Of a stretch of 64,000 nt of DNA, positions 106 through 27,992 are shown in pieces (position 1 is the first letter of the stretch; each line of letters starts with the position of its first letter). The stretch lies in the IMG/VR virus record IMGVR_UViG_2671180747_000017; one strand, written 5' to 3'. This DNA is from a virus (taxonomy: Duplodnaviria; Heunggongvirae; Uroviricota; Caudoviricetes). A model generated the notes under the pieces. The model made no database searches. It was not told the origin of the DNA and saw only the letters and a program-made list of their open reading frames with translations. The position numbers were made by a program, and so were the translations under genes.

Positions 106-114
106 GGAGGAAAT

Positions 115-366: not shown

Positions 367-376
367 GGAGTGGTGA

Positions 377-1642: not shown

Positions 1643-1675
1643 TTCACGATATTCCATTAATACCATTTCCTGATG

Positions 1676-1700
1676 CCCGGCCATTGTGCCGGGTTTTTTT
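1676..1700 (+). terminator. Rho-independent terminator-like hairpin (CCCGGC-loop-GCCGGG then T7)
   Basis: Read directly: 6-bp GC stem, 6-nt loop, 7 consecutive T; lies between the 421-aa gene stop and the giant gene start. Confidence 0.6.
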
Positions 1701-1711
1701 ATGGAGTCTGT

Positions 1712-10093: not shown

Positions 10094-10101
10094 CAGAAAT
10101 G

Positions 10102-10123
10102 GCCCCGTACGGAAGTGCGGGGC
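10102..10123. terminator. Stable hairpin after giant gene at convergent gene junction, no U-tract
   Basis: GCCCCGTAC-GGAA-GTGCGGGGC 9-bp stem read directly, 9 nt after stop codon. Confidence 0.3.
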
Positions 10124-10216
10124 TGATTAAGGAATAAACACACATTAACCTGTAATAACCGGAGCTATTAACATATAGTCAGAAAGAGTATTTCATGTGA
10201 GACAGAGAGCCGATTT

Positions 10217-10408
10217 ATGTTTAATGAAGAAAAAGTTGCGCAAATGGCAGCGTATTTGCTGAAAAAGCATGGCGGATCTATGCGTTTCATTAAGCTGATG
10301 AAGCTGATGTATCTCTCTGACCGCAAAGCAATGGAGTCTTTAACCGGGAAGGGGAGAGGTTTGAATGCTCCCCCACAATTCCCCGGCATCAAATCTCCAT
10401 GCAGGTGA
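10217..10408 (+). pseudogene. Possible N-terminal remnant of a Panacea (DUF4065)-like gene
   Basis: 63-aa ORF with KLMKLMYLSDRKAMESLTGK pattern recalled from Panacea-domain N-termini; ends abruptly; sits alone between convergent operons. Confidence 0.25.
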
Positions 10409-10494
10409 ACTATTTTACCCCCAGCGGCAAATCGCAAAAACAATCAGTGCGATCGAAATGGCAGCCACTACAATTGCAAATGCTTCAGGCTAGG

Positions 10495-11421: not shown

Positions 11422-11933
11422 GCCGCGTTTCCTTCTTTCTTATTAACAATTACACCGTCATATATTTCATTAAGGTGCCCTCTCAACTCCATGCGCCTTA
11501 ATGCAGATAACATGTAATCGCATTCAACCTGCTTATTCCCAATAAAAGGTTTATCTTCAGGGTTACCCCAACAGCAATTCCCCTTGGGCCATCCATGTAC
11601 TTTCCGTACTCTTCCGTTAACAACGTGAAGTAATCCCCAGCCAGGTGGTAAATCCTCAATTGAAATAATTCCCGGCTCACTAATAAAGAATCGCCAGTCG
11701 CCCATTCCAAGAGACGGATTTTTACGAAAACGCTTTTTTCTATCTGCCAACAAGTCAGCACGAGAACATTTCGCCTCTATCAGGCATGATGCTGAATTTC
11801 TGAATCCCATAGCATCTGGCTGTTCTCCGGTACTGGTTACAGCTATAAAGCGGTCATGAAAACAAACCTTGAACCCGTTGCGCTTAAGGAACTTGTACGC
11901 AATCTGACAGAGTTCGCGGTGTGTTAACGCCAT
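11418..11933 (-). CDS. Hypothetical prophage protein, possible PD-(D/E)xK-like nuclease motif
   Basis: ATG at 11933 with AAGGAG RBS overlapping the upstream gene's stop; motif CLIEAKCSRADL. Confidence 0.55.
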   Translation of the reverse strand: MALTHRELCQIAYKFLKRNGFKVCFHDRFIAVTSTGEQPDAMGFRNSASCLIEAKCSRADLLADRKKRFRKNPSLGMGDWRFFISEPGIISIEDLPPGWGLLHVVNGRVRKVHGWPKGNCCWGNPEDKPFIGNKQVECDYMLSALRRMELRGHLNEIYDGVIVNKKEGNAA

Positions 11934-11934
11934 A

Positions 11935-12885
11935 TCACTCTCCTTTGATGCGAATGCCAGCAAGCCAGTTTCTTATGCCGATATATTCAGCGTTCCGGAA
12001 ACCGCTTTTTACATATATAAATGGCAAGCGAAGATTGTGACCATTGACTGCCAGGTAGTCTTTACAACCCTGTTCGGTGAAACAGCAGGTAACGAATTCA
12101 TCAATATCTTTCACAGCAACGCGCCGCCATTTTTCTGGTGGCTCTCGAAAGTTTTCATGAAGTAGCTCGAGACGACGACTATGGCGTTTATTGGCTTCAT
12201 TGCCATCTTCGTCAACCCAGACAATCCGGTCATGGTCATAATCAGCATCAACAACGATTTCGCGCTTTTGATACACACAAAACATGGGATCTGACGTTAT
12301 TCGATTGTCCTGTGTTCGAATATTTTCACCGATGATGCCAAACGAATCTGGTGCAGATTTTGTCTGCATCTCTTCGATACGTTCAGCCATCGCAGCACAC
12401 TCTTCAAAGTTGCTTAATGCTTTTCGCTCCCATTCGGCGCATTGTTTTTCCAGTTCTGCTATGCGCTTACTTCCATCCGCGATTACTCCCTCGTAATATT
12501 CACGCTGCTCGTTGAGTTTTGATTTTGCTGTTTCAAGCTCAACGCGCAGCTTCCCTACCGTAAGCGCAATATCCTCGTTCTCCTGGTCGCGGCGTTTGAT
12601 GTATTGCTGGTTTCTTTCCCGTTCATCCAGCAGTGCCAGCACGGTAGCCGGATTGGCTGCGGCGATGAATTCAGCATTGGCCTGCTGTTCCATTTGGAAA
12701 TCTTCATCGAAACCGCTTTCAGGATGTGCTCCTTCAATTCTGCAAATGGGAATATATCCAGCAGCCTCGCGATGAATTAGTGCATCATCACCATCAAATC
12801 GGTTCTCTCCATATTCGAGCGACCACTCACCACGCGTTGCTTTTTCTGCCTTTTCACGCAGTACCTGATAGTTAATCTCGCTCAT
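11935..12885 (-). CDS. Ead/Ea22-like prophage protein
   Basis: Contains ANAEFIAAANPATVLALLDE, which I recognise from Ea22-like proteins; central coiled-coil; start refined to ATG 12885. Confidence 0.7.
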   Translation of the reverse strand: MSEINYQVLREKAEKATRGEWSLEYGENRFDGDDALIHREAAGYIPICRIEGAHPESGFDEDFQMEQQANAEFIAAANPATVLALLDERERNQQYIKRRDQENEDIALTVGKLRVELETAKSKLNEQREYYEGVIADGSKRIAELEKQCAEWERKALSNFEECAAMAERIEEMQTKSAPDSFGIIGENIRTQDNRITSDPMFCVYQKREIVVDADYDHDRIVWVDEDGNEANKRHSRRLELLHENFREPPEKWRRVAVKDIDEFVTCCFTEQGCKDYLAVNGHNLRLPFIYVKSGFRNAEYIGIRNWLAGIRIKGE

Positions 12886-13156
12886 TTTTCTCTTCGCTCC
12901 GGTATACAAGAATTACAACGTCACCTCTGCTAATTACGCGAGCTGGATCTCCTGGCTCCATGCTGTCAATCCCGAAGGCTTCGGAAAACGCATTCATTGC
13001 CTTCTGGCGTTGATCCTGCTTACGGCATTTATTCCATTTTTTCAGTAACAACAGCGATAGCCACCGCCCGGCGCAGAACATAATGTAAAAATAACCAAGA
13101 AGCGCCAGACCTGTGTTGAGGGCCGTATCGATCGTTATAGTGGTGTCTATGCTCAC
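12872..13156 (-). CDS. Small hydrophobic (membrane) prophage protein
   Basis: ORF track; hydrophobic segment GLALLGYFYIMFCAGRWLSLLLL; translationally coupled to neighbours. Confidence 0.5.
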   Translation of the reverse strand: MSIDTTITIDTALNTGLALLGYFYIMFCAGRWLSLLLLKKWNKCRKQDQRQKAMNAFSEAFGIDSMEPGDPARVISRGDVVILVYRSEEKNERD

Positions 13157-13374
13157 TTCACACCTCTCTGTTTGTTGATAAGTTCAATATCCTGCTGGCA
13201 ACTGGCGCAAGTTCGGCATCCGCGAACAGCCTGGCGTCGCCGCTCATCTATCGGATCGCCACACTCGCAACAATGAGTAGCAGATGGGGCATTACTTTCG
13301 GATTTGTATTTTTGCAGGGAGAGATTGCGCTGCAATTCTTCGATTTCAGCGGCATTGTCGATGATATCTGCCAT
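13153..13374 (-). CDS. TraR/DksA-family C4 zinc-finger protein
   Basis: CCECGDPIDERRRQAVRGCRTCASCQ four-Cys motif; 73 aa, typical size and position for phage TraR-like proteins. Confidence 0.8.
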   Translation of the reverse strand: MADIIDNAAEIEELQRNLSLQKYKSESNAPSATHCCECGDPIDERRRQAVRGCRTCASCQQDIELINKQRGVK

Positions 13375-13421
13375 TTTCCTTTCCTTCAGGCATGAAAAAA
13401 GGAGCCGAAGCTCCTTTGGTA

Positions 13422-14045
13422 TCAGAATTCAAATTGTCTTGCTCTTAGTTGCGCTAGCATACTTCTGGCCCTATGCACCATATAGTTGGCGGGATCAAGT
13501 TTTGCTGCTTCGCGGAGCAATGTGTCGCGAGTCCGGTTGGTTATATGACGAGTCTCGTAGGCCAGATCAAACAGTTTCCCGTAGTAATCAGAATTCAGTT
13601 CTCTCATGACGGGGTATAGCTGCTTACTGAGTTGTTGTGCTTTTTCCATCCAGAGTTGAACGTAGCAGAGCAGGATGATGTCTTCTGCTGTGAATTGCTG
13701 CTCAGTTTGTACTGGCTGAATGTTGCGAAGTTTCTTTTCGCACTCGATGAAGTATCGGCGTATCTGGCGGCCTTTTTCGTTACGTTCAACCATCGCAAGC
13801 TCTTTGGCTGTGTCGAGGGTGAGGTGGTAATCCTTGCGGCGGCGGCCTGGAGTTTTCGCCAAATTTGGCGAAAATAGAATGTAGTCTAAATTTTCTACGA
13901 ATCCATACTCGTTTAGCTTGGCCCGTATCCAGTTAGAAAAATCTTTACCTACCTCTAAAAATCCATGCAAATCACGCGCGTTCACCAGAAGCGTAGGTTC
14001 ATTTGAGATTGTACCTTCAAACACAGGGATGAGTTGAGTGGTCAT
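13422..14045 (-). CDS. Phage antirepressor, AntA-type N-terminal domain
   Basis: Start refined to ATG 14045 (MTTQLIPVF...) with GGAGG RBS; N-terminal region matches AntA/AntB-type antirepressors. Confidence 0.75.
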   Translation of the reverse strand: MTTQLIPVFEGTISNEPTLLVNARDLHGFLEVGKDFSNWIRAKLNEYGFVENLDYILFSPNLAKTPGRRRKDYHLTLDTAKELAMVERNEKGRQIRRYFIECEKKLRNIQPVQTEQQFTAEDIILLCYVQLWMEKAQQLSKQLYPVMRELNSDYYGKLFDLAYETRHITNRTRDTLLREAAKLDPANYMVHRARSMLAQLRARQFEF

Positions 14046-14294
14046 GATGACCTCCTTTGGCTTTTTTCGAGAAATGCCACCACAAAATGTGGTGCCGGGA
14101 GGCTCGAAACGGCCCAAAAGATACCGCGGACTTATTCCCCTTGCGGGTGTTGTATTCGTCGCCCTCCCGACATTGATCGGGGATGTGACCGCACACTGTG
14201 CTATCACTGAATAACAGGCATAAAAAATCCAACACTGACGGGGTTGGTTTAATCCGCTTTTGGGAGGTTTTCGAGGCCTCGGCGCGGAGTATAG

Positions 14295-14582
14295 TCAGTA
14301 TTGGACGCAGTCGTCAACCATCGCCGTTTCTTTGGCTGTGTCGAGGGTGAGGTGGTAATCCTTGCGGTTGTGACCGCCTCTACCAGATGTTTGCTTTCCC
14401 AAATTGGAAAGCAAAATATAGTCTTGATTTTCAATGAATTCGTATTCTGAAATGCGATTTGTAATCCATGCCGCAAACACCTTTTTCACGCCTAAAAAAG
14501 CATGCAGATCGCGGGCATTGCAGAGTAGGGCTGTTTCGTTGTCGATAGTGCCGTTGAATACGGGGATGAGTTGATTAGCCAT
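14295..14582 (-). pseudogene. Truncated paralog of the antirepressor (N-terminal domain only)
   Basis: MANQLIPVFNGTIDNETALL... closely parallels the 13422-14045 protein then ends at ...MVDDCVQY; flanking DNA is a partial duplicate of 13790-14290. Confidence 0.5.
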
Positions 14583-14909
14583 AATTATGACTCCTGACGT
14601 TTTAGTATTGACTGCCACCTTAGTGGGGTGGCGGGCTTCAACTACCGCGTCAGACGGCGGAGCGTATTTCCCGAAAGGGTATTGTATTAGGCTCTCTCGA
14701 CCCGCCATTGATATGGCGATACCTGTAAACAGGCATAAAAAAGCCGCAAAGCTATCGGGTGCGGTTGACCGCTGACGTTGTAGTGCAGTCAGTATGCGAT
14801 AGCTCTGGCAGATTTGTCAAATCGTGCAGTAACATCCTTTTCTTCCTTGCCATTTCTCAATGATGACAAAGGGTGGATTCGGATTGGTATTGGGACAAAA
14901 GTGAGACAC

Positions 14910-14942
14910 ACAAAGCTTTGCATCGGCTTACAAAGCTTTGCA
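14910..14942. repeat. Two direct copies of ACAAAGCTTTGCAT, each containing the palindrome AAAGCTTT, 19 bp apart
   Basis: Read directly near the prophage A / ynfG junction; operator-like or att-proximal binding sites. Confidence 0.4.
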
Positions 14943-14987
14943 TGTTTTTCAATGTTGGGACGTGTGAGCGCAGAAATGACGGGCTAT

Positions 14988-15101
14988 CTAATTGATTTTA
15001 AACGATACGTAACCAACTTTAAAATCTTTGCACGCCAGTTCGCAGGTTTTACAGCCAGTACAGCGGCTGGAATCGATAAAAAATCCATATTGTGTGGTCA
15101 T
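14988..15101 (-). pseudogene. ynfG: ynfG 5' remnant: first 28 codons (MTTQYGFFIDSSRCTGCKTCELACKDFK) fused to 9 phage-derived codons
   Basis: N-terminus matches DmsB/YnfG Fe-S subunit start; sequence diverges after KDFK at about 15018; AAGGAG RBS before ATG 15101. Confidence 0.7.
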
Positions 15102-15111
15102 GGGCTACTCC

Positions 15112-17538
15112 TTAAACCTTTTCGATCTGGACAAGATTGCTGTGCGACGGGTTTCCCTTTGCCAGCGGTGAAGGGCGGTGAGAGGTCAGAATATTGATAC
15201 TGCCGCCGTGATCGACCCGGTCACCAAACATATCCGCTTTAAGCCACGCACCTTGCCCGATGGCGGTAACGCCAGGCAGAATACGCGGAGTCACTTTTGC
15301 GGCAATCAGCATTTCTCCATTATTGTTAAATACCCGCACGGTATCGCCATGACGGATACCGCGTGCCTGAGCATCAATGGGGTTGATCCACACCTCTTGT
15401 GGGCAGGCCTGCTGTAACACATCAATATTGCCGTAGCTGGAGTGGGTACGCGCTTTGTAGTGGAAGCCCGTTAACTGCAGTGGATAGGTTTTCCGCAGGG
15501 GATCGTCCCAGCCATCAAAACCTGGGGTATACGCAGGAAGGGGATGAATAATTTCATCTTTTTTCAATTCCCAGGTATCTGCAATCTTCGCCAGTCGTTC
15601 AGAATAAATTTCGATTTTCCCCGAAGGTGTTTTCAACGGGTTTGCCTGTGGATCTTCACGGAATGCGCGGAAAGCGACGTAGTGTTCTTCCGGGCATTTT
15701 TTCTTAAAGATCCCGGTCGTTTTCATCTCCTCGTAGTCGGGCATCTCAGGGTTACGTTCCTTCGTTTTCGCATGGAGATATTTGATCCATTCATGCTGAC
15801 TGCGACCTTCAGTAAAGGTTTGATAAACGTCTGGTCCTAAGCGTTTGGCGACTTCACTCAGCATCCAGTAGATGGGTTTGCGTTCAAATTTTGCTGAGGT
15901 TGCGGGTTGGGCGAGGATCACATAGCCCATATTCCCTGCAGATTCATGAGAGATAAGGTCTTCTTGCTCTGTTGGCATCAGGTCGGGCAACAGGATATCG
16001 CAATACTTAGCCGAGGCCGTCATGAAGAGGTCAATGCCAACAATCATCTCGCACTTGCTGTCATCCTGAAGCACCTCATGGGTGTGATTGATGTCGCCAT
16101 GTTGATTGATCAATGTGTTACTGGCGTAGCACCATAAAAACTTGATGGGGACATCCAGTTTTTCTTTTCCACGAACACCATCACGGGTCGCGGTCATTTC
16201 CGTACCATGGTCGATGGCATCTGTCCATGTAAAGACGGAAATCTGCGTTTTAACAGGATTCTCAAGCATCGGGAACCATTCTACCCCCAGATCCCAGCTA
16301 CCTTCGCGTACACCTGAGTTGCCGCCGTTTATGCCGACGTTACCGGTGAGAACGGAAAGCATGGCAATAGCGCGGGACGTTTGCTCGCCGTTGGAATGTC
16401 GTTGTGGCCCCCAACCCTGACAAATATAAGCAGGTTTTGCTGAACCGATCTCTCGTGCCAACTGGATAATTTTTTCTGCCGGGATGCTGGTGATTTTTGC
16501 TGCCCATTCCGGCGTTTTAGCTATGCCGTCAGGCCCTTCGCCCAGAATATAGGCTTTATAATGCGCGTTACGTGGTGCGTTGGCGGGCAGCGTTTTTTCA
16601 TCGTAACCAACACAATATTTGTCGAGAAATGGCTGATCGACCATGTTTTCAGTAATCAGTACCCAGGCAATCGCACAGGCCAGTGCGCCATCGGTGCCAG
16701 GGCGAATGGGCAGCCATTCATCTTCACGCCCGGCAGCAGTGTCGTTATAACGTGGATCGATGACGATCATGCGTGCGTTTGAACGTTCGCGGGCTTGCTC
16801 GACGTAGTAAGTGACACCACCGCCGCTCATCCGCGTTTCTGCCGGGTTATTTCCGAACATAACGACCAGTTTCGTATTGGCGATATCATCCGGGCTGTTG
16901 CCATCATTGGCACCGAACATATAACTCATTGCGGCACTGATCTGTGCGGTACTGTAGCTGCCATAGCGACTGAGAAAACCACCGCAAGAGTTCATCAGAC
17001 GGTACGGGACGTTTGAGTTGGTGATGTTTCCGCCATCTACGCCTGTTCCGTACAGGACATGTACAGCCTCATTGCCGTAATCTTTCAGGATCCGCCGAAG
17101 ATTATCACTGATGGTATCCAGGGCTTCGTCCCAACTTATCCGTTCAAATTTACCTTCACCGCGCTTGCCGACGCGCTTCATGGGATATTTCAACCTATCA
17201 GGATGATTCATCCGTCGGCGGATAGAGCGCCCGCGTAAACACGCTCGAACCTGATGGTTACCGTAGACGTCGTCACCTGTCGTATCAGACTCCACCCAGT
17301 ACACGGTGTCATCTTTCACATGCAAACGTAACAGACAGCGGCTCCCGCAGTTAACGGTGCAGGAACTCCAGACCGCTTTCTCTTCTACCGGAGCCTCTGC
17401 CGCCCGGACCATTTGGGAAAATGGCAGAGTGAAAGCACTGCTTGCCAGCGCAAGACTGCCAAGTGCGGAGGTTTTCATCAGACTTCTACGGCTGATTTCA
17501 GCCTTCATGAGCGCCTCTGTGGTATGGATTTTCATCAT
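15112..17538 (-). CDS. ynfF: DMSO-reductase-family molybdoenzyme catalytic subunit, intact (808 aa)
   Basis: ORF track; Tat signal SRRSLMKTSALG, CTVNCGSRC Fe-S motif; synteny ynfE-ynfF-ynfG. Confidence 0.9.
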   Translation of the reverse strand: MMKIHTTEALMKAEISRRSLMKTSALGSLALASSAFTLPFSQMVRAAEAPVEEKAVWSSCTVNCGSRCLLRLHVKDDTVYWVESDTTGDDVYGNHQVRACLRGRSIRRRMNHPDRLKYPMKRVGKRGEGKFERISWDEALDTISDNLRRILKDYGNEAVHVLYGTGVDGGNITNSNVPYRLMNSCGGFLSRYGSYSTAQISAAMSYMFGANDGNSPDDIANTKLVVMFGNNPAETRMSGGGVTYYVEQARERSNARMIVIDPRYNDTAAGREDEWLPIRPGTDGALACAIAWVLITENMVDQPFLDKYCVGYDEKTLPANAPRNAHYKAYILGEGPDGIAKTPEWAAKITSIPAEKIIQLAREIGSAKPAYICQGWGPQRHSNGEQTSRAIAMLSVLTGNVGINGGNSGVREGSWDLGVEWFPMLENPVKTQISVFTWTDAIDHGTEMTATRDGVRGKEKLDVPIKFLWCYASNTLINQHGDINHTHEVLQDDSKCEMIVGIDLFMTASAKYCDILLPDLMPTEQEDLISHESAGNMGYVILAQPATSAKFERKPIYWMLSEVAKRLGPDVYQTFTEGRSQHEWIKYLHAKTKERNPEMPDYEEMKTTGIFKKKCPEEHYVAFRAFREDPQANPLKTPSGKIEIYSERLAKIADTWELKKDEIIHPLPAYTPGFDGWDDPLRKTYPLQLTGFHYKARTHSSYGNIDVLQQACPQEVWINPIDAQARGIRHGDTVRVFNNNGEMLIAAKVTPRILPGVTAIGQGAWLKADMFGDRVDHGGSINILTSHRPSPLAKGNPSHSNLVQIEKV

Positions 17539-17595
17539 TACTCACTTATTGCTTTTCAAACAAAATGTCATGCCAGAATTTATGATTGTCGTGGG

Positions 17596-18622
17596 TTATA
17601 TTTTTTCGATCTCGACCAGATTAGTGTGCTGCGGGTTTCCCTTCGCCAGTGGTGAAGGGCGCAGAGTGGTTAGCGTATTCACACAGCCGCCATGGTCGAT
17701 TTTATCGCCAGACATATTGGCCTCGTGCCAGGCTCCCTGGCCCATAGCGCTAACTCCAGGGAGAATACGTGGTGTTACTTTGGCTGGTAGCCGAACTTCG
17801 CCACGATGGTTAAACACCCGCACCATATCGCCGTTGGCAATCCCACGTTTCTGCGCATCTATAGGGTTGATCCACACCTCCTGACGGCAGGCAGCCTTCA
17901 GGAGATCAATATTGCCGTAGGTCGAGTGAGTACGGGATTTGTAATGGAAACCAAACAGTTGCAGTGGGAAGGTTCTACGTTCAGGGGAGTCCCAGCCTTC
18001 AAAGGTAGAGGCATAAACTGGCAGTGGGCTTATCACTTCATCTTTTTCCAGTTCCCAGGTACGGGCAATTTCCGCCAGCTTGCTGGAATAAATTTCAATC
18101 TTACCGGAAGGTGTTTTAAGTGGATTTGCCTCGGGGTCGTCACGAAATGCTTTGTAGGCGACAAAATGACCATTGGGATCTTTACGCTTATAGATACCCA
18201 TTTTTTTCAGTTCGTCGTAAGACGGTAACGCCGGATCTTTGGCAAGCATTTTGGCGTACAGATGTTGTAACCATTGTTCCTGCGTGCGACCTTCAGTGAA
18301 CTTTTGATAGACGTCAGGTCCAAGACGTTTCGCGACTTCACTCAGGATCCAGTAAATCGGTTTGCGTTCGAATTTTTCGCTGGTGACAGGCTGGAGGAAA
18401 ATGAGATATCCCATGTTACCGGCGTAGTCGTTAGGAATAATATCTTCCTGCTCAACGGTCATCAGGTCTGGCAGCAGAATGTCGGCATATTTTGCCGATG
18501 AGGTCATAAAGTTTTCGATGACCACAATCATTTCGCATTTCGATTCGTCCTGCAGAATTTCATGCGTTTTGTTGATGTCAGAATGCTGATTAACGAGGGT
18601 ATTTCCCGCGTAGTTCCAGATG
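17596..18622 (-). pseudogene. ynfE: ynfE C-terminal fragment (distal part of the disrupted gene)
   Basis: Paralogous to ynfF C-terminal half; the ynfE-derived reading frame begins at the junction (...SIWNYAGNTL) and the track ORF N-terminus is island-derived. Confidence 0.85.
18612..18622. repeat. attL core direct repeat AGTTCCAGATG
   Basis: Identical 11-mer at both ynfE breakpoints. Confidence 0.8.
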
Positions 18623-18687
18623 GACTCCATTGTCAGACGGATGGATGGACTTGAAGTAGTTGACTCAATGCTACTTAAGGTCCTGAT

Positions 18688-20271
18688 ATGACTGACATTA
18701 ACCATGATAATACTGTATATCCATCCAGTTCTTTCTCTGGGTCTCCCTATCTGTATCAGCAAGTCTGCACCTCAAGTCCTGACACAAGGCTGACACAAAT
18801 CAATCTACTCAGCGTAGCTAAGCCTCAGTTAGTCCGTAGAGCCAATGGTCGATATACTATCCGCTTCAGACTCAAGGGACAGACCATCCCGTTTCTTTCA
18901 GTATCGACCCGAAGCACAGACAGGAGAGTAGCCACAATGCGTCAGAGAGAGCTTGCAGCCACAGCTAAGTCCTTCATGTTGGATAGGCCTGATGTCTCGC
19001 TACAGGAGCTTACGGACCACCTCCGGTCTATGGCTGAGCAGTTCCTGACAGACGCCAGTGATGACTACTGGAATGGACTTGAGGTCGCTACTCTGGTGGA
19101 CGAGAAGTCCAACCTGAAGGAGCTAGCCGCTACGCAAGCCTTGAGTCTGGACCAGCAGAAGGGCATAAGGTTAGCGCTTGAAGTCCTGACCGCAGCACAG
19201 CAGAGGGTAGACACTGGTGATGCCTCTGGTCTGATTAAGCTGATTGATGATAATAACCATACTGATTACTCAACTATAGGCGACTCTACGTCAATTCTGA
19301 AGAATGAGCAGGGGGATAGACCAGCAGTTTTCACACAGGAGCGTCAGCCATCTGTGGTTTTTTCAAGCCTAGTGTCCTCGCTGCTGGCTGAGAAGGTCCA
19401 GACCCTGAAGTCCTCCAGCTACAAGGACCTGTCGTCCTCACTGAATACCGTCTCTCGGTTCTTACCTGAAGACATGGACCTGATGTCCCGCTCTGAGTGG
19501 CTGGCTGTCAGGGACTCCATGCTGGCTGCTGAGGTGAGACCATCGACAATCAACAAGCTGCTGACTAAGGCGAAGATGTGTCTTGATTATGGCCTGATGA
19601 ATGGGCAACTTGAGGGCCGCAACCCTATTGAACGGATGAAGCTGACCAAGGATATCGACTCCAAGCGCAGAGCGTTCACAGACGAGGAGCTGGAGAGACT
19701 TCTGGTCCGTGTTGAGTCTGAGTATCAGTTCACACGACACACGGCTCACACGACCTCTGAGGCCCGTAGATGGGCGTCTCTGGTGTCTGTGGTCACTGGC
19801 GCGAGGTCTGCTGAAGTCTGCCACCTGACTAAACGTGACATTGTCACCTTAGACAACGGTTTAACCTGCATCGACATCAATGAAGATGGGGACGGTAAGT
19901 CTGTGAAGAACAAACATTCAGTCCGACTTGTACCGCTGACCGATGGGGCCTGTGGGTTCGACCTGAAGTCCTTCCTTGAATGGGTAGACACGCAGCCTGA
20001 CGACGGCGGTCCTCTCTTCGGGATGACTCCGAGCGCCTACTCTAGCTGGTTTAACTCTAGGGTCCTGACTGAGGCACTGGGAGACGCTGAGAACGTTTCT
20101 CTCCATAGTCTGAGGCATTGGCTGGCGACCCGAATGAAAGAGCGTGGAGTCAATCTGGTGGACGCTCAGGGCATCTTAGGCCATAGCAGTCAGTCAATTA
20201 CGTATGACCTGTACGGGAAAGGACACGCTGTTGGTAGGCTGGCTGAGGTGCTGAAGACAGCTTTACTTTAA
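18688..20271 (+). CDS. int: Tyrosine recombinase / integrase of the island
   Basis: C-terminal HSLRHWLATR and LGHSSQSITYDLYGKGH (H-x-x-R and catalytic Tyr); N-terminal GRYTIRFRLKG arm-binding-like segment; true start uncertain because arm-type repeats lie at 18780-18798. Confidence 0.85.
   Translation: MTDINHDNTVYPSSSFSGSPYLYQQVCTSSPDTRLTQINLLSVAKPQLVRRANGRYTIRFRLKGQTIPFLSVSTRSTDRRVATMRQRELAATAKSFMLDRPDVSLQELTDHLRSMAEQFLTDASDDYWNGLEVATLVDEKSNLKELAATQALSLDQQKGIRLALEVLTAAQQRVDTGDASGLIKLIDDNNHTDYSTIGDSTSILKNEQGDRPAVFTQERQPSVVFSSLVSSLLAEKVQTLKSSSYKDLSSSLNTVSRFLPEDMDLMSRSEWLAVRDSMLAAEVRPSTINKLLTKAKMCLDYGLMNGQLEGRNPIERMKLTKDIDSKRRAFTDEELERLLVRVESEYQFTRHTAHTTSEARRWASLVSVVTGARSAEVCHLTKRDIVTLDNGLTCIDINEDGDGKSVKNKHSVRLVPLTDGACGFDLKSFLEWVDTQPDDGGPLFGMTPSAYSSWFNSRVLTEALGDAENVSLHSLRHWLATRMKERGVNLVDAQGILGHSSQSITYDLYGKGHAVGRLAEVLKTALL
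18780..18798. repeat. Two direct TGACACAA arm-type repeats, 11-bp spacing, left end of island
   Basis: TGACACAAGGCTGACACAA read directly; same motif triplicated at the right end. Confidence 0.7.
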
Positions 20272-20348
20272 GTAGGAAGACCCAAGGTGGAGACCATATA
20301 CGGCTTGATGGTTGAGACCTTGGGTCACTGAAGTCTGACTGAAGTTAG

Positions 20349-20376
20349 GGAGGGTGATAATAATCATAATCCCTCC
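20349..20376 (+). terminator. Hairpin downstream of integrase (GGAGGG, 16-nt loop, CCCTCC), no clear U-tract
   Basis: Read directly about 80 bp after the int stop. Confidence 0.25.
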
Positions 20377-20483
20377 TGACTATAGGCCCACTGGTTCGCC
20401 TTCGGCTGTCAGACTCTAAGTCTGTATGTGGTCTTATTTAAACTGGTTCCCTAACTCCAGTACTCCAAATTCCTATGGTCTCC

Positions 20484-20690
20484 TCTTGACATTCCTGTTT
20501 AACTGTGAGTCGCCTCTGGTCTCTCTTTATATATACTTCCTTAATTCCTGAGGCGTCTTTAGTCCTTGACATCCAGTCCAGCCTGTGAGTCACATCCGGT
20601 CCTCCCTCTTTATATATACTTCCTTAATTCCTAGGGTCGCCTTAATCCTTGACATCCAGTCCAGCCTGTGAGTCACATCCTGTCGCGCTA
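20484..20690. repeat. Three tandem direct repeats, period about 80-83 bp, each with TTGACAT...CTGTGAGTC; the first two also carry CTCTTTATATATACTTCCTTAATTCCT
   Basis: TTGACA at 20486, 20566, 20649; CTGTGAGTC at 20503, 20583, 20666; 27-mer at 20523 and 20606. Confidence 0.75.
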
Positions 20691-20713
20691 CTGTATGCAT
20701 CACCAGTGATGGA

Positions 20714-20736
20714 CTTGATTATCACTATAGGGGAAC
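20714..20736 (+). promoter_or_regulatory. T7-group phage RNA polymerase promoter-like site, copy 1 (predicted +1 G at 20730)
   Basis: TCACTATAGGG matches T7 consensus positions -8 to +3 exactly; upstream specificity region (ATTA) differs from T7/T3/K11/SP6; 35 bp upstream of an ORF with AGGAG RBS. Confidence 0.6.
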
Positions 20737-20764
20737 CAACTAATTCAACTACAGGAGATACTCT

Positions 20765-21133
20765 ATGGCACGACCAATCGCAACTCACGACAACACGTTC
20801 ACCAAAGCCTACTTGCAGCAGCACTGCGGGGACCTGCTGTCATTCGATGGTCAGGGCGACCTGAGTGGTTGGCTGGATGATGTCCTTACTGGTGCTGGTC
20901 GCCTGAACGAATCAATGGCAAGCAATACCAAGCCTGTCAGCCCATACTTGATTCTGACCCAACTACTAACGCACGACACATTAACTGTAAGCGCTGTACA
21001 GGAGTCCCTGAGCCGTAAGCGTGTTGCCTTGGGTGAACCTATGGTTTCAACTCGCTACGCTCGCTACGTCTATGCTACCGTCGTCAGCGCCAGTAAATCC
21101 GTCCAGTACCACGCCAGTAAAGCTGGTTCATGA
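20765..21133 (+). CDS. 122-aa protein, first gene downstream of phage-type promoter 1, unknown function
   Basis: ORF track; ACAGGAGATACTCT-ATG gives an AGGAG RBS at good spacing. Confidence 0.65.
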   Translation: MARPIATHDNTFTKAYLQQHCGDLLSFDGQGDLSGWLDDVLTGAGRLNESMASNTKPVSPYLILTQLLTHDTLTVSAVQESLSRKRVALGEPMVSTRYARYVYATVVSASKSVQYHASKAGS

Positions 21134-21142
21134 TTACGGACC

Positions 21143-21165
21143 CTAAACTATCACTATAGGGAGAC
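21143..21165 (+). promoter_or_regulatory. T7-group phage RNA polymerase promoter-like site, copy 2 (predicted +1 G at 21159)
   Basis: TCACTATAGGGAGA matches T7 consensus positions -8 to +6 (14/14); shares TATCACTATAGGG with copy 1; same strand. Confidence 0.65.
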
Positions 21166-21422
21166 CAGCCTCCGCCTCTGAGTCTGATGCGTCAGAACAT
21201 GCGAGCATCTGGTCAACCGACATTAAGTATCTCTCCTAAGTAATCAAGGCATGTGACCGCCTCTGTCAGACCTCGTGTATCGACCTCCAGCTCGTTAGCG
21301 TTCTCGTGTCTTCATTATGATTTGGGTCTATCACCGCTCACCATCTGGAAGTCCTTACAGCTCGTCCTGACATGCGGTCTCACCTTTATATGGCTGGAAG
21401 AGACCTCCTCTGTCAGACGCTA

Positions 21423-21470
21423 TCTAACCAACCCAGAAAACGGGTTTGTTAAAAAGATTAACATGGGTCT
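21423..21470. repeat. Direct repeat copy 1, about 47 bp (TCTAACCAACCCAGAAAACGGGTTTGTTAAAAAGATTAACATGGGTCT)
   Basis: Near-identical second copy at 21619-21665; contains short hairpin AACCC-AGAAAAC-GGGTT. Confidence 0.7.
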
Positions 21471-21490
21471 CCACCTTCATGAGGACCGCT

Positions 21491-21504
21491 CCGGAAATTT
21501 CCGG
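21491..21504. repeat. 14-bp perfect palindrome CCGGAAATTTCCGG between the two 47-bp repeats
   Basis: Read directly. Confidence 0.7.
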
Positions 21505-21618
21505 ACCGTGAACGGGTGGCTCTATCACAGGTCGCGAAAATGGAAACCTGCTTAACGTCCCCAAAACTGAGCAGTCACCATTCTTAACGGGTCCAAATTT
21601 GGGCGCGTTGGCGAGAAG

Positions 21619-21665
21619 TCTAACCAACCCAGAAAACGGGTTTGTTAAAAAAGTTAACATGGTCT
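21619..21665. repeat. Direct repeat copy 2, about 47 bp
   Basis: About 45 of 48 positions identical to copy 1; 196 bp spacing. Confidence 0.7.
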
Positions 21666-21793
21666 TCACACGACCTCATTACCTCAAGTCTTTCTGTATG
21701 TCTCCTGTTGCCTGTGAGTCTCCCTATCGTTGGGGGCTTGAGTAGGCTTTCAGGGTGTGACTTCAGGAGGCATAACAAAAGGAGTACAACGAT

Positions 21794-22552
21794 ATGTCAA
21801 CTCAACCCTTAATGAAGCATGAAGTAGTTCTTCCTGTCATCGTTGACGGCTATCACTGGGCCTGTAATCAGGACCGTATGTGGAACCTGAACGAGCTACA
21901 TAAAGAGCTTGAGCTTCCATCTGCTAAGGAGCCGGGTCAGTGGCGTTCTAGCGTCAGGACGCTTCTTGACCAAGATGCAAATCTGCATGTTGCTCATGGT
22001 GGTTCGACTCCGGGGACATGGGCTACTGAAGAGGCGGCTATTGCCTATGCGATGTGGGTCTCACCTGATTTCTACCTTAAGGTCATCCGTGCTTTCATCG
22101 CTTTACGTAACGACAAAGTGTCGGAAGCTAAGGCGCTGGCGCAGGACTCCAAGGAACTTAAGGGTCTCAAGCCTATAGCCCGTAACTGGCTGGAAAAGCT
22201 GGATAACCCGAAGCAGGGCCACACCCTGACAGAGTGTCTTAAGAATCTCGACTTCAGGTTAGGTACAAAGCTGGTATCAGCCAAGGCTCTTAATGCCGTA
22301 TTGAAGTCAGGGCGTATAGCTAATCCCTTCTATAGTCGCAAGCTGGACGGTCGAGGACAGCCTGTATTTGACATCTCGTCAGGTGGCTGGATGACCAGCT
22401 TCAATCCTAAGGGTCTGGAGAACGGCTATTACCGTCTTCAGGATAACCACTATAACGGTCAGGAGGGGCTTAAGGTCCTCACCAAGGGTTACGAGTGGCT
22501 TAAGTCCAACAAGGTCGAGCTGGTTCGTCTGTGCGCTAAGGGAGGACTCTAA
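21794..22552 (+). CDS. KilA-N domain protein (DNA-binding), 252 aa
   Basis: AAGGAG RBS; N-terminal ...LHVAHGGSTPGTWATEEAAIAYAMWVSPDFYLKV resembles KilA-N/APSES-type domain. Confidence 0.7.
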   Translation: MSTQPLMKHEVVLPVIVDGYHWACNQDRMWNLNELHKELELPSAKEPGQWRSSVRTLLDQDANLHVAHGGSTPGTWATEEAAIAYAMWVSPDFYLKVIRAFIALRNDKVSEAKALAQDSKELKGLKPIARNWLEKLDNPKQGHTLTECLKNLDFRLGTKLVSAKALNAVLKSGRIANPFYSRKLDGRGQPVFDISSGGWMTSFNPKGLENGYYRLQDNHYNGQEGLKVLTKGYEWLKSNKVELVRLCAKGGL

Positions 22553-22553
22553 G

Positions 22554-22721
22554 ATGATTGACCCGCGCACACCTGAGGGCCGCATGACTCTCCGTTACCG
22601 TGGCTACCGGACTGAAGTCCTCCTCAGAGAGCTTGGTCTAGACCCGGAAGATGAGACCCGCCAGCACCAATCCCGAGACGAGCTGATAGCGCAACTGGTC
22701 GCTATGAAACTGTCTGCCTAA
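22554..22721 (+). CDS. Small 55-aa protein, not in ORF track
   Basis: ATG immediately after the upstream stop (TAAGATG coupling); MIDPRTPEGRMTLRYRGYRTEVLLRELGLDPEDE...; read by eye. Confidence 0.4.
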   Translation: MIDPRTPEGRMTLRYRGYRTEVLLRELGLDPEDETRQHQSRDELIAQLVAMKLSA

Positions 22722-22817
22722 TTTTAAAACCTTTTGAGATGACCGATGCGGGGAGACCCGTAGGCGCTACTGCGTCTGCGATACCGATAGTCTCAACTCT
22801 CAAGAGGAGAATTACCT

Positions 22818-23309
22818 ATGATGTTCAACAACAACAACTGGAAGCTGTCAGTCACCGACATCAACCTTTATGAAAACACTGTGAGTCTGGACGGTCAGTC
22901 CTATCCGTTGTCGCTCGCTATCAAGACCCTGATTCCGGGCTACCTGTCAGGACTGCCGTCTACCAGCCGTGAGTCTATGGAGTTACTGGAAGCTCTGGCT
23001 GAAGCTGGTGTAGCTATTGGCAACTTCTTCAGTAATGACCTGATGACCGCCTATGGTCGCCGCCAGCAGAACAAGCGAGCTGAGGCTGAGCGTATCGCTA
23101 AAGAGCAGCGCATTCAGGCCGAGCGCATGCGTGAAGAGAACATGACTGATGCAGAGTGGCAGAAAGAGCTACAGCGCCGCGAACAGGTCAAAGCTGAACG
23201 CCGGACCTATGGTGAGAACCTCCGCAGTGCTACCCATTCCGCTGGTCGCTCCCGTGCCGCTATTGTCGCTGACCTTGAGTCAGGCGGTAACTGGCTGGAC
23301 AGCTTATAA
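22818..23309 (+). CDS. 163-aa protein with basic coiled-coil C-terminal half, unknown function
   Basis: ORF track; GAGGAG RBS; Arg/Glu/Gln-rich heptad-like segment AEAERIAKEQRIQAERMREE. Confidence 0.6.
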   Translation: MMFNNNNWKLSVTDINLYENTVSLDGQSYPLSLAIKTLIPGYLSGLPSTSRESMELLEALAEAGVAIGNFFSNDLMTAYGRRQQNKRAEAERIAKEQRIQAERMREENMTDAEWQKELQRREQVKAERRTYGENLRSATHSAGRSRAAIVADLESGGNWLDSL

Positions 23310-23393
23310 GACACACAGTCCCTGACCCGATGTTAGGGACTCCTCAGTTTTGAGGACTCACAGTATTTAAACTAATTTAGGAGATTGATTATT

Positions 23394-24380
23394 ATGACGA
23401 TTAAAGACGCTTTCCAGTTTGGCATTGAGCCAGTACGCATCACCGATACCGACAACATTCAGGTCAATGAAGGTCTGCCGACTAACGCTGACCCGCAGGT
23501 CTACGCCCTCCAGTTAGCTAAGACGGTTAAGGCTATGCTGAACGGTGTACTTAAGGACGCTCAAGAGAACATCCCGTTCCCTGTAGAAGTCCTGCCGACC
23601 CGTAACAGCTTACCGACCCCAATCATTGCCCACACTCTGACTGACCGCTCTGTGGTCGTTCCTGTCCGTGGTGGCAAGCGACCTGAAGTCGTGACCGTTC
23701 CGTCTGGACAAGAAATCGTGGTCGAACCAATCGAGCAGGCTATTCTCATCTCTGAGCAGACCAAGCTCTGGGACGCCAAGTCATCCACCGGATTCACTCA
23801 GGGCACACTTCAGCAGGACGCTATGAACATCTGTGAGAATGTGGTCCGTACCATCAACGCTCGCATGGTCGACGTTCTGGAATCCTCTAAGCTGCTGAAG
23901 ACCGTAGAGCTTCCTGTCCTGACTGGTAGCCTGACCGCTAAGGCAGACGCTATCATGGACGCTCTGTATGAGAACACAGAGTCTTCTTTCGGTTCTGAGG
24001 TGTCTGACTACGGTATTATCGCTCATGAGAGCCAACTGAAAGCACTGTCCCGTCTGGCTGCTAAGCAAGGCTTCTCCGGTGAAGACGCTATCGTCGATAT
24101 GCTGGGAACAGACATCGCCTACTACAACGGTGAAGACAAGGGTGTATTCATGCTGGCTAAACGCTTCACGGCTCTGAGCTTCGGTTGCTTCCGTCACGAT
24201 GGCGAGAATATTACGGTCGTCCTTTCACGTGATGGCGACTCTCAGTCCCACGACTTGGAAATCCTCGGTAAAGTGTTCGTTGTCGCTGAAGCTGCTACGA
24301 CCATCAAGATGGGCACTGGCTCAGCTACTGCCGTCCTGCCTGTAGTCAAACGCCTGAAGTTCACCAAGACCGAAGCGTAA
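23394..24380 (+). CDS. 328-aa protein, unknown function (largest island cargo gene)
   Basis: ATG 23394 with TAGGAG RBS (track start 23385 is TTG); no motif I can assign. Confidence 0.65.
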   Translation: MTIKDAFQFGIEPVRITDTDNIQVNEGLPTNADPQVYALQLAKTVKAMLNGVLKDAQENIPFPVEVLPTRNSLPTPIIAHTLTDRSVVVPVRGGKRPEVVTVPSGQEIVVEPIEQAILISEQTKLWDAKSSTGFTQGTLQQDAMNICENVVRTINARMVDVLESSKLLKTVELPVLTGSLTAKADAIMDALYENTESSFGSEVSDYGIIAHESQLKALSRLAAKQGFSGEDAIVDMLGTDIAYYNGEDKGVFMLAKRFTALSFGCFRHDGENITVVLSRDGDSQSHDLEILGKVFVVAEAATTIKMGTGSATAVLPVVKRLKFTKTEA

Positions 24381-24385
24381 GACCA

Positions 24386-24625
24386 ATGGGTAAGAGCATT
24401 AGTAAAGGCTTCAGGTCCATCGCCAAGGGCCTGACAGGTGGTGGTGGGACTCAAGGTGGGGCTTCGGTCCCGCCTCCTGTAGCTCCTCCTGTAGCTCCTC
24501 CAGATGACGCTCAGCAAGCTGTAGTCGATACCCAAGGTCAGGAGACCGAGGGAGGTAAGACCATGAGCAGAGGTAAGTCTGGACTGAATATCAGCAGGAC
24601 TTCAGGTGGTGGCCTGTCACTGTGA
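24386..24625 (+). CDS. 79-aa Gly/Pro-rich basic protein
   Basis: ORF track; GGGGTQGGASVPPPVAPPVAPP low-complexity; follows 328-aa gene by 5 nt. Confidence 0.45.
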   Translation: MGKSISKGFRSIAKGLTGGGGTQGGASVPPPVAPPVAPPDDAQQAVVDTQGQETEGGKTMSRGKSGLNISRTSGGGLSL

Positions 24626-24863
24626 TTAAGACATCTATACAGCCTGTGGAGGGTGGACGATATCAAGCAACAATCTGGATGACACGCAGAGTCTATAAGC
24701 GGCTATGCTGGTCACTGGCTGAAGCTGAACAGTGGGTGAGACGTAAAGTGCCTACCGTTCAATCGTTCCAATCATCATGATAACTATGGTCTGGACCAAT
24801 GGTCTGGACCTTTGTTTTGTACTAGTTATCTAGTGCAGTAGTACAATAGACGAAGGAGGCTTT

Positions 24864-25019
24864 ATGTCTATGACTTCCGCAGACCTAAGGTCCCTCCTGA
24901 CTCTGGTCTATAAACTCGTGTTCCTCTCTGTGGGTCTCTATATGGTCCTCTCCGGTCGACTCGGTGTGAATGTATTCGACACTCTGTCTAAGGCTGTGGG
25001 TGGGCTTCTGGGGGCTTAG
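24864..25019 (+). CDS. 51-aa hydrophobic membrane peptide
   Basis: Strongest RBS in the island (GAAGGAGG, 6 nt before ATG); one predicted TM helix LLTLVYKLVFLSVGLYMVLSG; read by eye, not in ORF track. Confidence 0.5.
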   Translation: MSMTSADLRSLLTLVYKLVFLSVGLYMVLSGRLGVNVFDTLSKAVGGLLGA

Positions 25020-25169
25020 GTTTGGACTCACAGTGGGACCGATGGTTTCTGACAGAAAAATGTGAATGACCATCTAATACATTAAGCCAGCAGACTTCCC
25101 CCATAGCCCGCCTCAAGTCCAGACCGAGGCCACCGGGGGGCTGACCAGCCGTCTAGACATCCCGTCTAA

Positions 25170-25200
25170 TGACACAAGGCTGACACAAAGCCTGACACAA
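25170..25200. repeat. Three direct TGACACAA arm-type repeats (11-12 bp spacing), right end of island
   Basis: TGACACAAGGCTGACACAAAGCCTGACACAA read directly. Confidence 0.7.
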
Positions 25201-25257
25201 AGTCCTTGACTCAATGCAGGACCTCAGGCCTACTAAGGGTCCGCTTCAAGTCCTTGA

Positions 25258-25268
25258 AGTTCCAGATG
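25258..25268. repeat. attR core direct repeat AGTTCCAGATG
   Basis: Identical to 18612-18622. Confidence 0.8.
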
Positions 25269-26668
25269 AACTTAATGGGCACATCCAGTTTATCTTTGCC
25301 GCGGACGCCGTCGCGGATTGCCGTCATTTGCGGACCATGATCGATAGCATCTGTCCAGCTGAAGCAGGAGATTGACATTTTGACCGGATTATCCAGCACC
25401 GGCAGGCGTTCTATGGTAATGGTATAGGTCGATTCACGCGCGCCACTATTTCCGCCGCTGATGCCGACATTGCCCGTCAAAATAGGTAACATAGCAATAG
25501 CGCGTGCAGTCAGTTCGCCGTTTGCCTGGCGTTGCGGCCCCCAGCCCTGGCAGATATAAGCGGGTTTTGCTGTGCCAATTTCACGCGCCAGTTTGATGAT
25601 ACGGTCTACCGGGATACCGGTAATTTGCGAAGCCCACTGCGGCGTTTTCGCTGTGTTATCATCACCTTCACCAAGAATATAGGCTTTATAGTGACTATTT
25701 TTGGGTGCATCTGCGGGTAAGGTTTTTTCGTCATAGCCGACGCAGTATTTATCGAGAAAAGGTTGATCAACGAGATTTTCGTTAATCAATACCCAGGCAA
25801 TACCCGCAACCAGCGCGGCATCGGTGCCCGGGCGAATAGGGAGCCATTCATCTTCACGACCAGCAGCCGTATCGGTATATCGCGGATCGATAGCAATCAT
25901 TTTGGCGTTCGATTTCTCGCGCGCTTTTTCAAGAAGATAAGTGATGCCACCGCCGCTCATGCGGGTTTCTGCCGGGTTGTTACCAAACATCACGACCAGC
26001 TTGCTGTTTTCAATATCCGTGGTGCTGTTGCCATCATTACTGCCGTAGGTGTAGGGCATGGCACAGGAAATTTGCGCGGTGCTGTAGGAGCCATACTGAT
26101 TGAGTGAACCGCCGTAGCAGTTCATCAGGCGTTTGACCGCCGAGGCTGATGGCGAAGAGCGGGTCATATTGCCGCCAACGATCCCCGAAGAGTACTGAAT
26201 ATATACAGCCTCATTGCCATATTGTTCGACGGTTTTCTTCAGGCTACTGGCGATAGTATCCAGGGCTTCATCCCAGCTAATCCGTTCGAATTTGCCTTCG
26301 CCGCGTTTGCCCACGCGTTTCATTGGGTAATTCAAGCGATCGGGATGATTAATACGCCGACGGATGGATCGACCACGCAAACAGGCGCGTACTTGATGAT
26401 TGCCATACTCGTCGCTGCCGGTGTTGTCAGTTTCCACCCAGGTGACTTCATTATCTTTAACATGTAGACGAAGTGCACAGCGGCTACCACAGTTGACGGA
26501 ACAGGCACCCCAGATCACTTTTTCGCTGGCCTGTTGTACCGCTGCCGCTGCACTGCGCAGGGTGAACGGTAAAGAAAAACCGCCTGCAGCCAGCGCCAGA
26601 GAACCTATCGCGGTTGATTTAACGAGTGTTCTGCGGCTGATGCCCACCATTCGGTCATTTTTGGACAT
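25258..26668 (-). pseudogene. ynfE: ynfE N-terminal fragment (promoter-proximal part of the disrupted gene)
   Basis: Tat signal GISRRTLVKSTAIG, CSVNCGSRC motif; colinear with ynfF to ...DVPIKFIWN, then island-derived residues and stop. Confidence 0.85.
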
Positions 26669-27172: not shown

Positions 27173-27279
27173 CATAAGCTCCTTACGCGAAGATAACTTC
27201 TTTAAGCATAGCATTTAACGTGTAAAGTACTGTATTTGCTACTATGATTGAGAATCATCTCTACTCTCTGGTGACTGTT

Positions 27280-27990: not shown

Positions 27991-27992
27991 TG

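Follow-up and report, generated by a model that had tools for sequence, protein, structure and literature searches.

The ynfEFGH-dmsD operon, a selenate/tellurate reductase operon (PMC5203670, PMC12096835), carries two foreign insertions in the 64,000-nucleotide stretch of E. coli chromosome analyzed here (IMG/VR record IMGVR_UViG_2671180747_000017, hereafter the window): a Shiga toxin (Stx)-phage-like lambdoid prophage (prophage A) in ynfG and an integrative island of 6.6 kb in ynfE. With a probability of about 0.8, these are two unrelated site-specific elements, each seated in its own fixed bacterial attachment site (attB) inside a gene, in an operon that is dispensable and backed by a paralogue. 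The ynfG and ynfE sites are both already documented in published work, so that the double hit, although real, is largely unremarkable. Core chromosome accounts for only ~10 kb of the window, and the ynf operon is read from its minus strand.

Junctions of prophage A and the island

Comparison of the window with K-12 ynfD-dmsD by blastn gave two blocks, 27337-25258 and 18626-15017, which share 15 bp of K-12 sequence. At the prophage boundary, the ynfG start codon lies at 15101-15099 on the minus strand, and the gene is identical to its intact counterpart up to codon 28 (15020-15018) and one further G (15017), with phage DNA thereafter; the open reading frame (ORF) continues through nine phage-derived codons to a TAG at 14990-14988. 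The truncation of ynfG after codon 28 by prophage A, described in an earlier note on this stretch, was thereby confirmed to the base, coordinates included. The 84-bp remnant is annotated by RefSeq as a partial '4Fe-4S binding protein' in E. coli EC2, RM10410 and S19-651.

Window positions 1-15016 were collinear with positions 47692-62699 of Shigella phage POCJ13 (100% coverage, 97.6% identity), the match running to the final base of the POCJ13 record. The same arm was 99.3% identical to Shigella phage 75/02 Stx and only two single-nucleotide polymorphisms (SNPs) apart from the Stx1a prophage arm of S19-651, a Shiga-toxin-producing E. coli (STEC). Phages 75/02 and POCJ13 integrate in ynfG (PMC5447701), where the Stx1a prophage of E. 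coli RM10410 also sits (PMC10562709), and all three use the same attB as prophage A; RM10410, like the window strain, holds the ynfE island too. An integrase of the POCJ13/75/02 type would recombine at the 7-bp core TTTAAAG, at ynfG codons 27-29, keeping 28 ynfG codons beside ynfF and sending the other 540 bp of ynfG, with ynfH and dmsD, to a position ~60 kb away.

The window starts within prophage A, and the integrase end of the prophage and the 3' part of ynfG were instead read from near-identical genomes. In EC2 and S19-651, the far prophage end consists of a 387-amino-acid (aa) integrase, the TTTAAAG core, the remaining 540 bp of ynfG, ynfH and dmsD. The displaced ynfH and dmsD lie in the stretch 11229-13281 of the examined EC2 locus and 1112-3164 of the examined S19-651 locus. 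The earlier note had allowed that the rest of ynfG might lie at the other prophage end with its function restored; the remainder does lie there in both genomes, and function is not restored. An in-frame TAG is found 42 nt upstream of the 3' fragment in both, only a GTG-initiated stub is possible, and neither genome supplies a replacement N-terminus; the first ferredoxin motif is without its Cys14/17/20/24.

The window itself shows the late/accessory arm of prophage A, with no integrase, immunity or stx region. The ynfG prophage of S19-651 carries stxA1a and stxB1a, and no stx genes are annotated in the prophage region examined in EC2. Near-identity of the window to S19-651, whose prophage has both toxin genes, makes it very probable that prophage A converts its host to Stx1a production; the window strain would then probably be Shiga-toxin-producing.

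At the island, the K-12 ynfE alignment is divided into a C-terminal part (window 18626..17596) and an N-terminal part (26668..25258). The gene is interrupted at codons 467-471 (…PIKFIWN|YAGN…), inside the molybdopterin domain. The 15-bp overlap is an imperfect direct repeat, AGTTCCAGATG(G/A)ACT, present at 18612-18626 and 25258-25272 with one mismatch and a start-to-start distance of 6,646 bp; the identity shared within the two copies is the 11-bp AGTTCCAGATG. These features bore out the reported splitting of ynfE by the island, with the 15-bp imperfect repeat at both ends. Upstream of the C-terminal ynfE fragment only unrelated island-derived codons were found, with no replacement YnfE N-terminal sequence. 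The 527-aa island integrase would recombine within the 11-bp AGTTCCAGATG of codons 467-471, and, as with the prophage, the interrupted gene is not rebuilt by the inserted element, which leaves no intact YnfE and no YnfG.

Between the two hits ynfF is intact, as the earlier note had it, and is the only complete structural gene of the ynf operon left within the window. Its full-length product is identical to K-12 YnfF at 806 of 807 positions and scores 1769.9 bits against the NCBIfam model selenate_YnfF (NF041884), above the cut-off of 1650. The one substitution, H503L (window 16028), is private relative to S19-651 and K-12; this single observation could hint at relaxed constraint in an already dead operon.

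Independence, order and occupancy of the two insertions

The window was compared with S19-651 (NZ_CP075852.1) over the shared 28.6 kb (window 1-18626 and 25258-35263), which contains three SNPs; an additional difference at 18623 is derived from the attachment (att) sequence. In S19-651 an Stx1a prophage occupies ynfG, but ynfE is uninterrupted and reads as the exact attB at the island position. This indicates that the two insertions are separate events, since S19-651 has the prophage and yet an empty ynfE site. STEC17-183, JNEC-KY179, JNEC-KY208 and STEC2018-607 likewise have an intact ynfE, with backbone and phage arm matching at 99.5-100%. Because these close relatives share the prophage and have an intact ynfE, parsimony suggests that the prophage came first in the window clone and that the island was gained later, very recently.

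The two recombination systems have little in common. The island and prophage integrases share only the catalytic HxLRH region (BLASTP E = 0.017 over 34 aa), their att cores differ (TTTAAAG for the prophage, AGTTCCAGATG for the island), and ynfF contains neither the FIWNYAG motif nor the 15-bp island core. Shared targeting of the operon was rejected on these three grounds. Together with the empty ynfE site of S19-651, the same observations support the view in the earlier note that the integrations are independent and unrelated.

Occupancy of each site, which that note had suggested comparing across strains, was counted in 5,426 complete E. coli genomes, with no-match counts taken at megablast level. 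The ynfG phage junction was present in 82 genomes (1.5%), O104:H4 outbreak strains included; at this site attB was intact in 5,235 genomes, matched as two half-sites in 82 and without a match in 100. The ynfE island junction was present in 149 (2.7%), where attB was intact in 5,117, matched as two half-sites in 152 and without a match in 143. Each attB is occupied by essentially one element type, because the counts of two half-sites (82 and 152) about equal the junction counts (82 and 149). The locus was without a match in ~2-3% of the genomes. A query spanning both junctions identified nine genomes with both insertions, ~0.17% of finished E. coli genomes: RM10410, EC2, ES5, three SW0716xx isolates, 1504D004/1604D011 and PS2Canimalfeces12.

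The island position is also used outside E. coli. In a scan of one genome per species, related integrases were found in Citrobacter, Kluyvera, Leclercia and Shigella flexneri, each abutting a ynfE fragment that starts at aa 465-468, and YnfE is broken at aa 465-471 in all these loci; across genera, the island integrase is thus strictly site-specific, and the island belongs to an element family that uses this exact ynfE position in several enterobacterial genera. The island corresponds to Eco892.7.ynfE and Sfl13.8.ynfE (7-8 kb, with a tyrosine integrase) in the TIGER catalogue (Mageeney 2020 NAR, PMC7192596), where both are scored as cutting into the Molybdopterin domain with no restoration. 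In the text available, the study lists the element and proposes a regulated-gene-integrity role for it, and leaves its cargo undescribed.

Several further copies were noted in passing. In S. flexneri CP182556.1 the integrase match is broken by ~1.3 kb, and the ynfE, ynfF and ynfG matches are fragmented and frame-shifted; island and ynf operon both appear to be decaying in this genome. The ynfE island of RM10410, a crow STEC, holds two ISCro1 (IS66-family) insertions, and a text search of the paper on this strain (PMC10562709) returned no mention of ynfE. A 6,661-bp Logan contig from SRR29836470 is a divergent island relative (~80% DNA identity) with its own 16-bp repeat, TAGTTCAGATTGAACT, and ~14 nt of host sequence at each end that resemble the ynfE region (F-N-L-N-Y-A versus F-I-W-N-Y-A), which suggests that the integrase clade may track the ynfE site across diverged targets. 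This contig was rejected as an excised form of the island; a repeat with ~14 nt of host flank fits a break in the assembly graph and does not fit a circle.

The proximity of the two sites would reflect persistence, with no shared targeting mechanism: an attB whose occupation disrupts a gene would persist only where loss of that gene costs little. Loss of the ynf operon is expected to be cheap because DmsABC is a paralogue, the locus is absent from some genomes and it has decayed in S. flexneri. Of the two explanations offered in the earlier note for two integrations so close together, a permissive locus is therefore plausible, given the ~2-3% of genomes without a match and the decay in S. flexneri; target preference found no support, each element having its own fixed, published site, and is true only in the trivial sense of one site per integrase.

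Cargo of the island and neighbouring features

All island genes are on the plus strand, antisense to the ynf operon (Table 1), and the integrase gene begins 62 bp from the left junction. Inside the island ends, by ~150 bp and ~70 bp, a 20-nt sequence, TGACACAAGGCTGACACAAA, recurs exactly (18780-18799 and 25170-25189); it and the ~83-bp tandem repeat past the integrase gene could be arm-type integrase sites and iterons, respectively. The KilA-N gene is variable cargo, as EC2 has other genes in its place. Scans with Pfam, PHROGs and NCBIfam detected no excisionase or anaerobiosis-linked regulator among the island proteins, and the same databases with PADLOC gave no AlpA, primase or TerS, the matches being confined to the integrase, the KilA-N protein and a T7 gp7.3-like protein. 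A defence island was considered and rejected; PADLOC returned only a weak match of the KilA-N protein to PDC-S22. No match to the island was found in 50,697 phage records by blastn in distant mode, and the exact 28-mer of the junction expected in the circular element (attP) had 0 matches in IMG/VR and 0 in JGI metagenome contigs.

The most conserved cargo is a trio of ORFs, ORF163, ORF331 and ORF79. In Leclercia and S. flexneri their products are 94-96%, 97.6-99.4% and 100% identical, respectively, to those of the window; for Kluyvera the identities of ORF163 and ORF331 drop to 32-45%, and no ORF79 was detected. Neither ORF331 nor ORF163 matched a family in Pfam, PHROGs, PADLOC or NCBIfam. Distant homologues of ORF331 were recovered by an exhaustive HMMER search, and a diverse alignment of 34 of these sequences gave an AlphaFold2 model with a predicted local distance difference test score (pLDDT) of 83.2 and a predicted template modelling score (pTM) of 0.79; it replaced a model from 12 close homologues that was unusable (pLDDT 42). 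Foldseek comparison of the model with the PDB gave 214 matches at E <= 1e-3, of which every one of the 50 listed is a capsid or encapsulin shell protein, and comparison with BFVD gave 192 entries at E <= 1e-3, mostly capsid or head proteins among the matches listed. ORF331 is therefore predicted, from its modelled fold, to form an HK97-fold capsid or an encapsulin-like structure. A PHROG scan of the 34 homologues matched a single member, to tail/Ig-domain families only, probably through an appended domain. ORF79 resembles T7 gp7.3 by PHROG profile, and its match to Pfam VirionAssem_T7 (E = 0.0057) is below the curated cut-off. ORF163, encoded directly upstream of the capsid gene, may have a scaffold role.

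The island lacks genes for a portal, a terminase or a tail. The complete capsid and packaging module of capsid-forming phage-inducible chromosomal islands (cfPICIs) is absent, and 6.6 kb leaves no room for it. The island resembles the 'twilight-zone' mini HK97 genomes of a 2025 preprint, temperate tailless genomes of ~9 kb from gut metagenomes (bioRxiv 10.1101/2025.06.18.659913), in pairing an integrase with genes for an HK97-fold capsid and a scaffold-like protein while lacking portal, terminase and tail genes. Unlike them it is only 6.6 kb long (against ~8.9 kb), occupies a defined attB of cultured E. coli, and has no recognised RepA or helicase. A 35%-identical ORF331 homologue lies in a comparable mini-island, arranged Int-254-155-MCP (major capsid protein), at another chromosomal site in another genome. 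The ynfE island may thus be a minimal capsid-encoding, satellite-like element. More tentatively, and with the odds somewhat against it, it would be a cultured, chromosomally anchored counterpart of the mini HK97 elements, which have so far come from metagenomes only, and one that crosses enterobacterial genera by means of a small capsid built or re-sized with helper phage functions.

Table 1. Positions of the insertions, the interrupted operon and the island genes in the window.
Feature	Position	Strand	Basis
Prophage A right (late/accessory) arm, POCJ13 / 75/02-type Stx-phage-like lambdoid podovirus	1..15016		Nucleotide alignment
Giant LPD38 ORF, 2806 aa	1673-10093		Part of the prophage A arm
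Truncated ynfG ORF, 28 native and 9 phage codons, then TAG	14988..15101	-	Comparison with intact ynfG
Prophage A/ynfG att core, 7 bp, TTTAAAG (minus-strand reading)	15017..15023	-	attL, attR and attB compared in EC2, S19-651 and K-12-like ynfG
ynfF, full-length ORF, 807 aa, H503L	15112..17535	-	NCBIfam; K-12 comparison
ynfE C-terminal fragment, ~aa 467 to stop codon	17596..18626	-	blastn to K-12 ynfE; translation
Left island att repeat AGTTCCAGATGGACT; G at 18623 from attP	18612..18626		Repeat analysis; S19-651 comparison
Integrative island in ynfE, 6,631 bp between repeats (6,646 bp with one repeat)	18627..25257	+	K-12 blastn; repeats; S19-651 empty site
Island tyrosine integrase, 527 aa	18688..20271	+	Pfam PF00589 E = 1.8e-13; PHROG 1 integrase E = 3.3e-42
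~83-bp tandem repeat, ~2-3 copies, just past the integrase gene	20503..20689		Repeat scan
KilA-N domain protein, variable cargo	21794..22552	+	Pfam PF04383 E = 1.3e-09; strain comparison
ORF163, charged coiled-coil-like protein	22818..23309	+	Sequence; no family match
ORF331, predicted HK97-fold major-capsid-like protein	23385..24380	+	AlphaFold2 model; Foldseek
ORF79, small Gly/Pro-rich, T7 gp7.3-type virion protein-like	24386..24625	+	phrog_1320 E = 1.8e-11
ynfE N-terminal fragment, aa 1 to ~470; ORF enters the island for 15 codons, then stop	25211..26668	-	Translation versus K-12 YnfE
Right island att repeat AGTTCCAGATGAACT, same as attB	25258..25272		Repeat analysis; S19-651 comparison

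Beyond the operon, a third integrative element, a lambda-like prophage (prophage B), extends over ~31900-64000, with an integrase gene at 32029-33324 on the minus strand, an excisionase, an exonuclease, a large terminase (51731-53833) and a tape measure gene (60669-63764). It adjoins rspB, where K-12 has the Qin remnant. A second IMG/VR record, IMGVR_UViG_2698536640_000010 (72,915 bp), contains a 17-kb stretch matching window 15385-32377 at 99.994%; judged by its coordinate offset, it would span prophage A to prophage B, placing two prophages, the ynf-rsp genes and the island in one provirus call.

Predicted metabolic consequences and alternative readings

DmsABC and YnfEFGH are paralogous S-/N-oxide and selenate reductases, and the window strain keeps only ynfF of the ynf structural genes complete within the window. 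The Salmonella selenate reductase has YnfE as its main catalytic subunit; YnfF contributes little and YnfG serves in electron transfer (PMC5203670). With the catalytic, molybdopterin domain of YnfE cut and only 28 codons of YnfG left, it is a well-supported prediction that the native YnfEFGH enzyme has been lost, in line with the non-functional reductase proposed by the earlier note. Both disruptions would in principle be reversible by precise excision.

Effects on the remaining genes were considered from the layout of the locus. The island, 6.6 kb of antisense (convergent) genes, separates ynfF from the ynfE promoter, so ynfF is probably poorly transcribed. In EC2 and S19-651, ynfH and dmsD have moved ~60 kb from the ynfE promoter to a position directly downstream of the phage int gene, where they would depend on read-through from int or on an internal promoter. 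A promoter/terminator scan of 14700-27300 gave no excess over shuffled controls (9 versus 11.3; 12 versus 10.6). DmsD is required for maturation of the dimethyl sulfoxide (DMSO) reductase; with dmsD, too, severed from the operon promoter, ynfG lysogens might show altered DMSO respiration.

Five points weigh against the interpretation of two unrelated elements in a dispensable operon. First, double occupancy is more frequent than expected: nine genomes against 2.25, a ~4-fold excess with a naive hypergeometric p of 3.7e-4, a value that leaves population structure uncontrolled. Collapsing obvious clones raised p to ~0.02-0.07 (0.025 with two obvious clone groups collapsed), and the enrichment is weak and unexplained and is not taken here as evidence of coupling; it nevertheless gives some room to a coupling of the two insertions, whether ecological, epistatic or of the helper-satellite kind. 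Second, the integrase end of prophage A and the rest of ynfG are known from near-identical genomes and lie beyond the window. Third, the order of insertion is an argument from parsimony; precise island loss in several relatives would be the less parsimonious course. Fourth, Ynf and Dms subunits are reportedly interchangeable (Lubitz & Weiner 2003), and an intact YnfF might still work with DmsB/DmsC. Fifth, to the TIGER authors the ynfE element is a candidate switch of the regulated-gene-integrity kind and not a tolerated lesion (PMC7192596).

Second-hit epistasis is one form of such coupling, and we consider it doubtful. According to this explanation, the first lesion kills the operon, the other attB becomes cost-free and selection against a second hit is relaxed. 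The nine double-occupied genomes, where 2.25 were expected, agree with it, as does the presence of the prophage in relatives with an intact ynfE (S19-651, STEC17-183, JNEC-KY179/208 and STEC2018-607), which suggests that the island arrived in a broken operon; the private H503L of ynfF, a single case, adds little weight. The excess, however, falls to p ~0.02-0.07 once obvious clones are collapsed, and population structure is uncontrolled in a comparison where both elements occur in animal- and STEC-associated strains. Most carriers are single-hit: 140 of the 149 with the island and 73 of the 82 with the prophage.

Regulated gene integrity, in which either element, or both, would serve as a reversible switch comparable to skin/sigK or the mlrA prophage and would excise precisely to rebuild ynfE or ynfG when needed, appears improbable. 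In its favour, the TIGER authors point to a tight integrase clade whose independent integrations disrupt one and the same position of the domain (PMC7192596). The island retains an intact integrase and both copies of its att repeat; the same ynfE site is used across genera, and recurrence in E. coli is site-identical in 82 and 149 genomes. Near-clonal S19-651 carries exactly the attB expected from precise excision, a state that could equally be ancestral and never occupied. The Stx prophage in mlrA (yehV), skin/sigK and comK share with the ynf elements an attB in the gene interior, a gene that is inactive while occupied and restorability by excision. For mlrA, skin/sigK and comK, a regulatory role has been described (PMC7192596), whereas ynfE and ynfG involve two different elements in one operon, and function would return only if both excised. 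The scans of the island gave no excisionase or anaerobiosis-linked regulator, and prophage A is of the ordinary lambdoid Stx type, with SOS-type induction. Excision of such a phage normally kills the cell, which also counts against a switch. As the island occurs in just 2.7% and the prophage in 1.5% of genomes, most of the species has no such 'switch', and the operon itself has been lost or has decayed in some lineages.

The helper of a capsid-encoding island could be the neighbouring Stx-type podovirus. A functional linkage of this kind, with the ynfE island as a satellite mobilised by the ynfG phage, is very improbable. The island has capsid-like, scaffold-like and gp7.3-like proteins and no portal, terminase or tail, and would need packaging functions from outside; the E. 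coli and Leclercia copies of its proteins share 97-100% identity, implying recent horizontal spread, and the modest co-occurrence enrichment fits as well. But the island proteins do not resemble those of prophage A or B in sequence: a tblastn search against the EC2 copy of prophage A and the remainder of the window gave only two marginal integrase matches (E ~0.01) and no hint of a common origin. Moreover, 140 of the 149 island carriers are without the ynfG prophage, island DNA had no match in the 50,697 phage records, and the attP junction was absent from the IMG/VR viral and JGI metagenome contigs searched. For the switch, epistasis and helper-satellite explanations alike, the positive evidence amounts to the modest co-occurrence excess.

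An assembly chimera or mis-joined contig, which might be suspected from a 72.9-kb IMG/VR 'viral' contig that merges two prophages, chromosomal genes and the island, is effectively refuted already, each junction being repeated in dozens of independently finished genomes and both in nine, with flanks collinear with K-12 and S19-651 and att repeats as site-specific recombination leaves them.

Read as two unrelated site-specific elements, the locus is an example of gene-disrupting attB sites gathering in a dispensable paralogous operon. The metabolic prediction for the window strain is loss of the native selenate/tellurate reductase, with dmsD separated from the operon promoter, and S19-651 provides a natural near-isogenic control. 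The capsid-like gene of the island may matter more than the double insertion itself: an unannotated capsid gene, combined with a natural isogenic strain whose site is empty, would offer a tractable system for the study of very small capsid-encoding elements.

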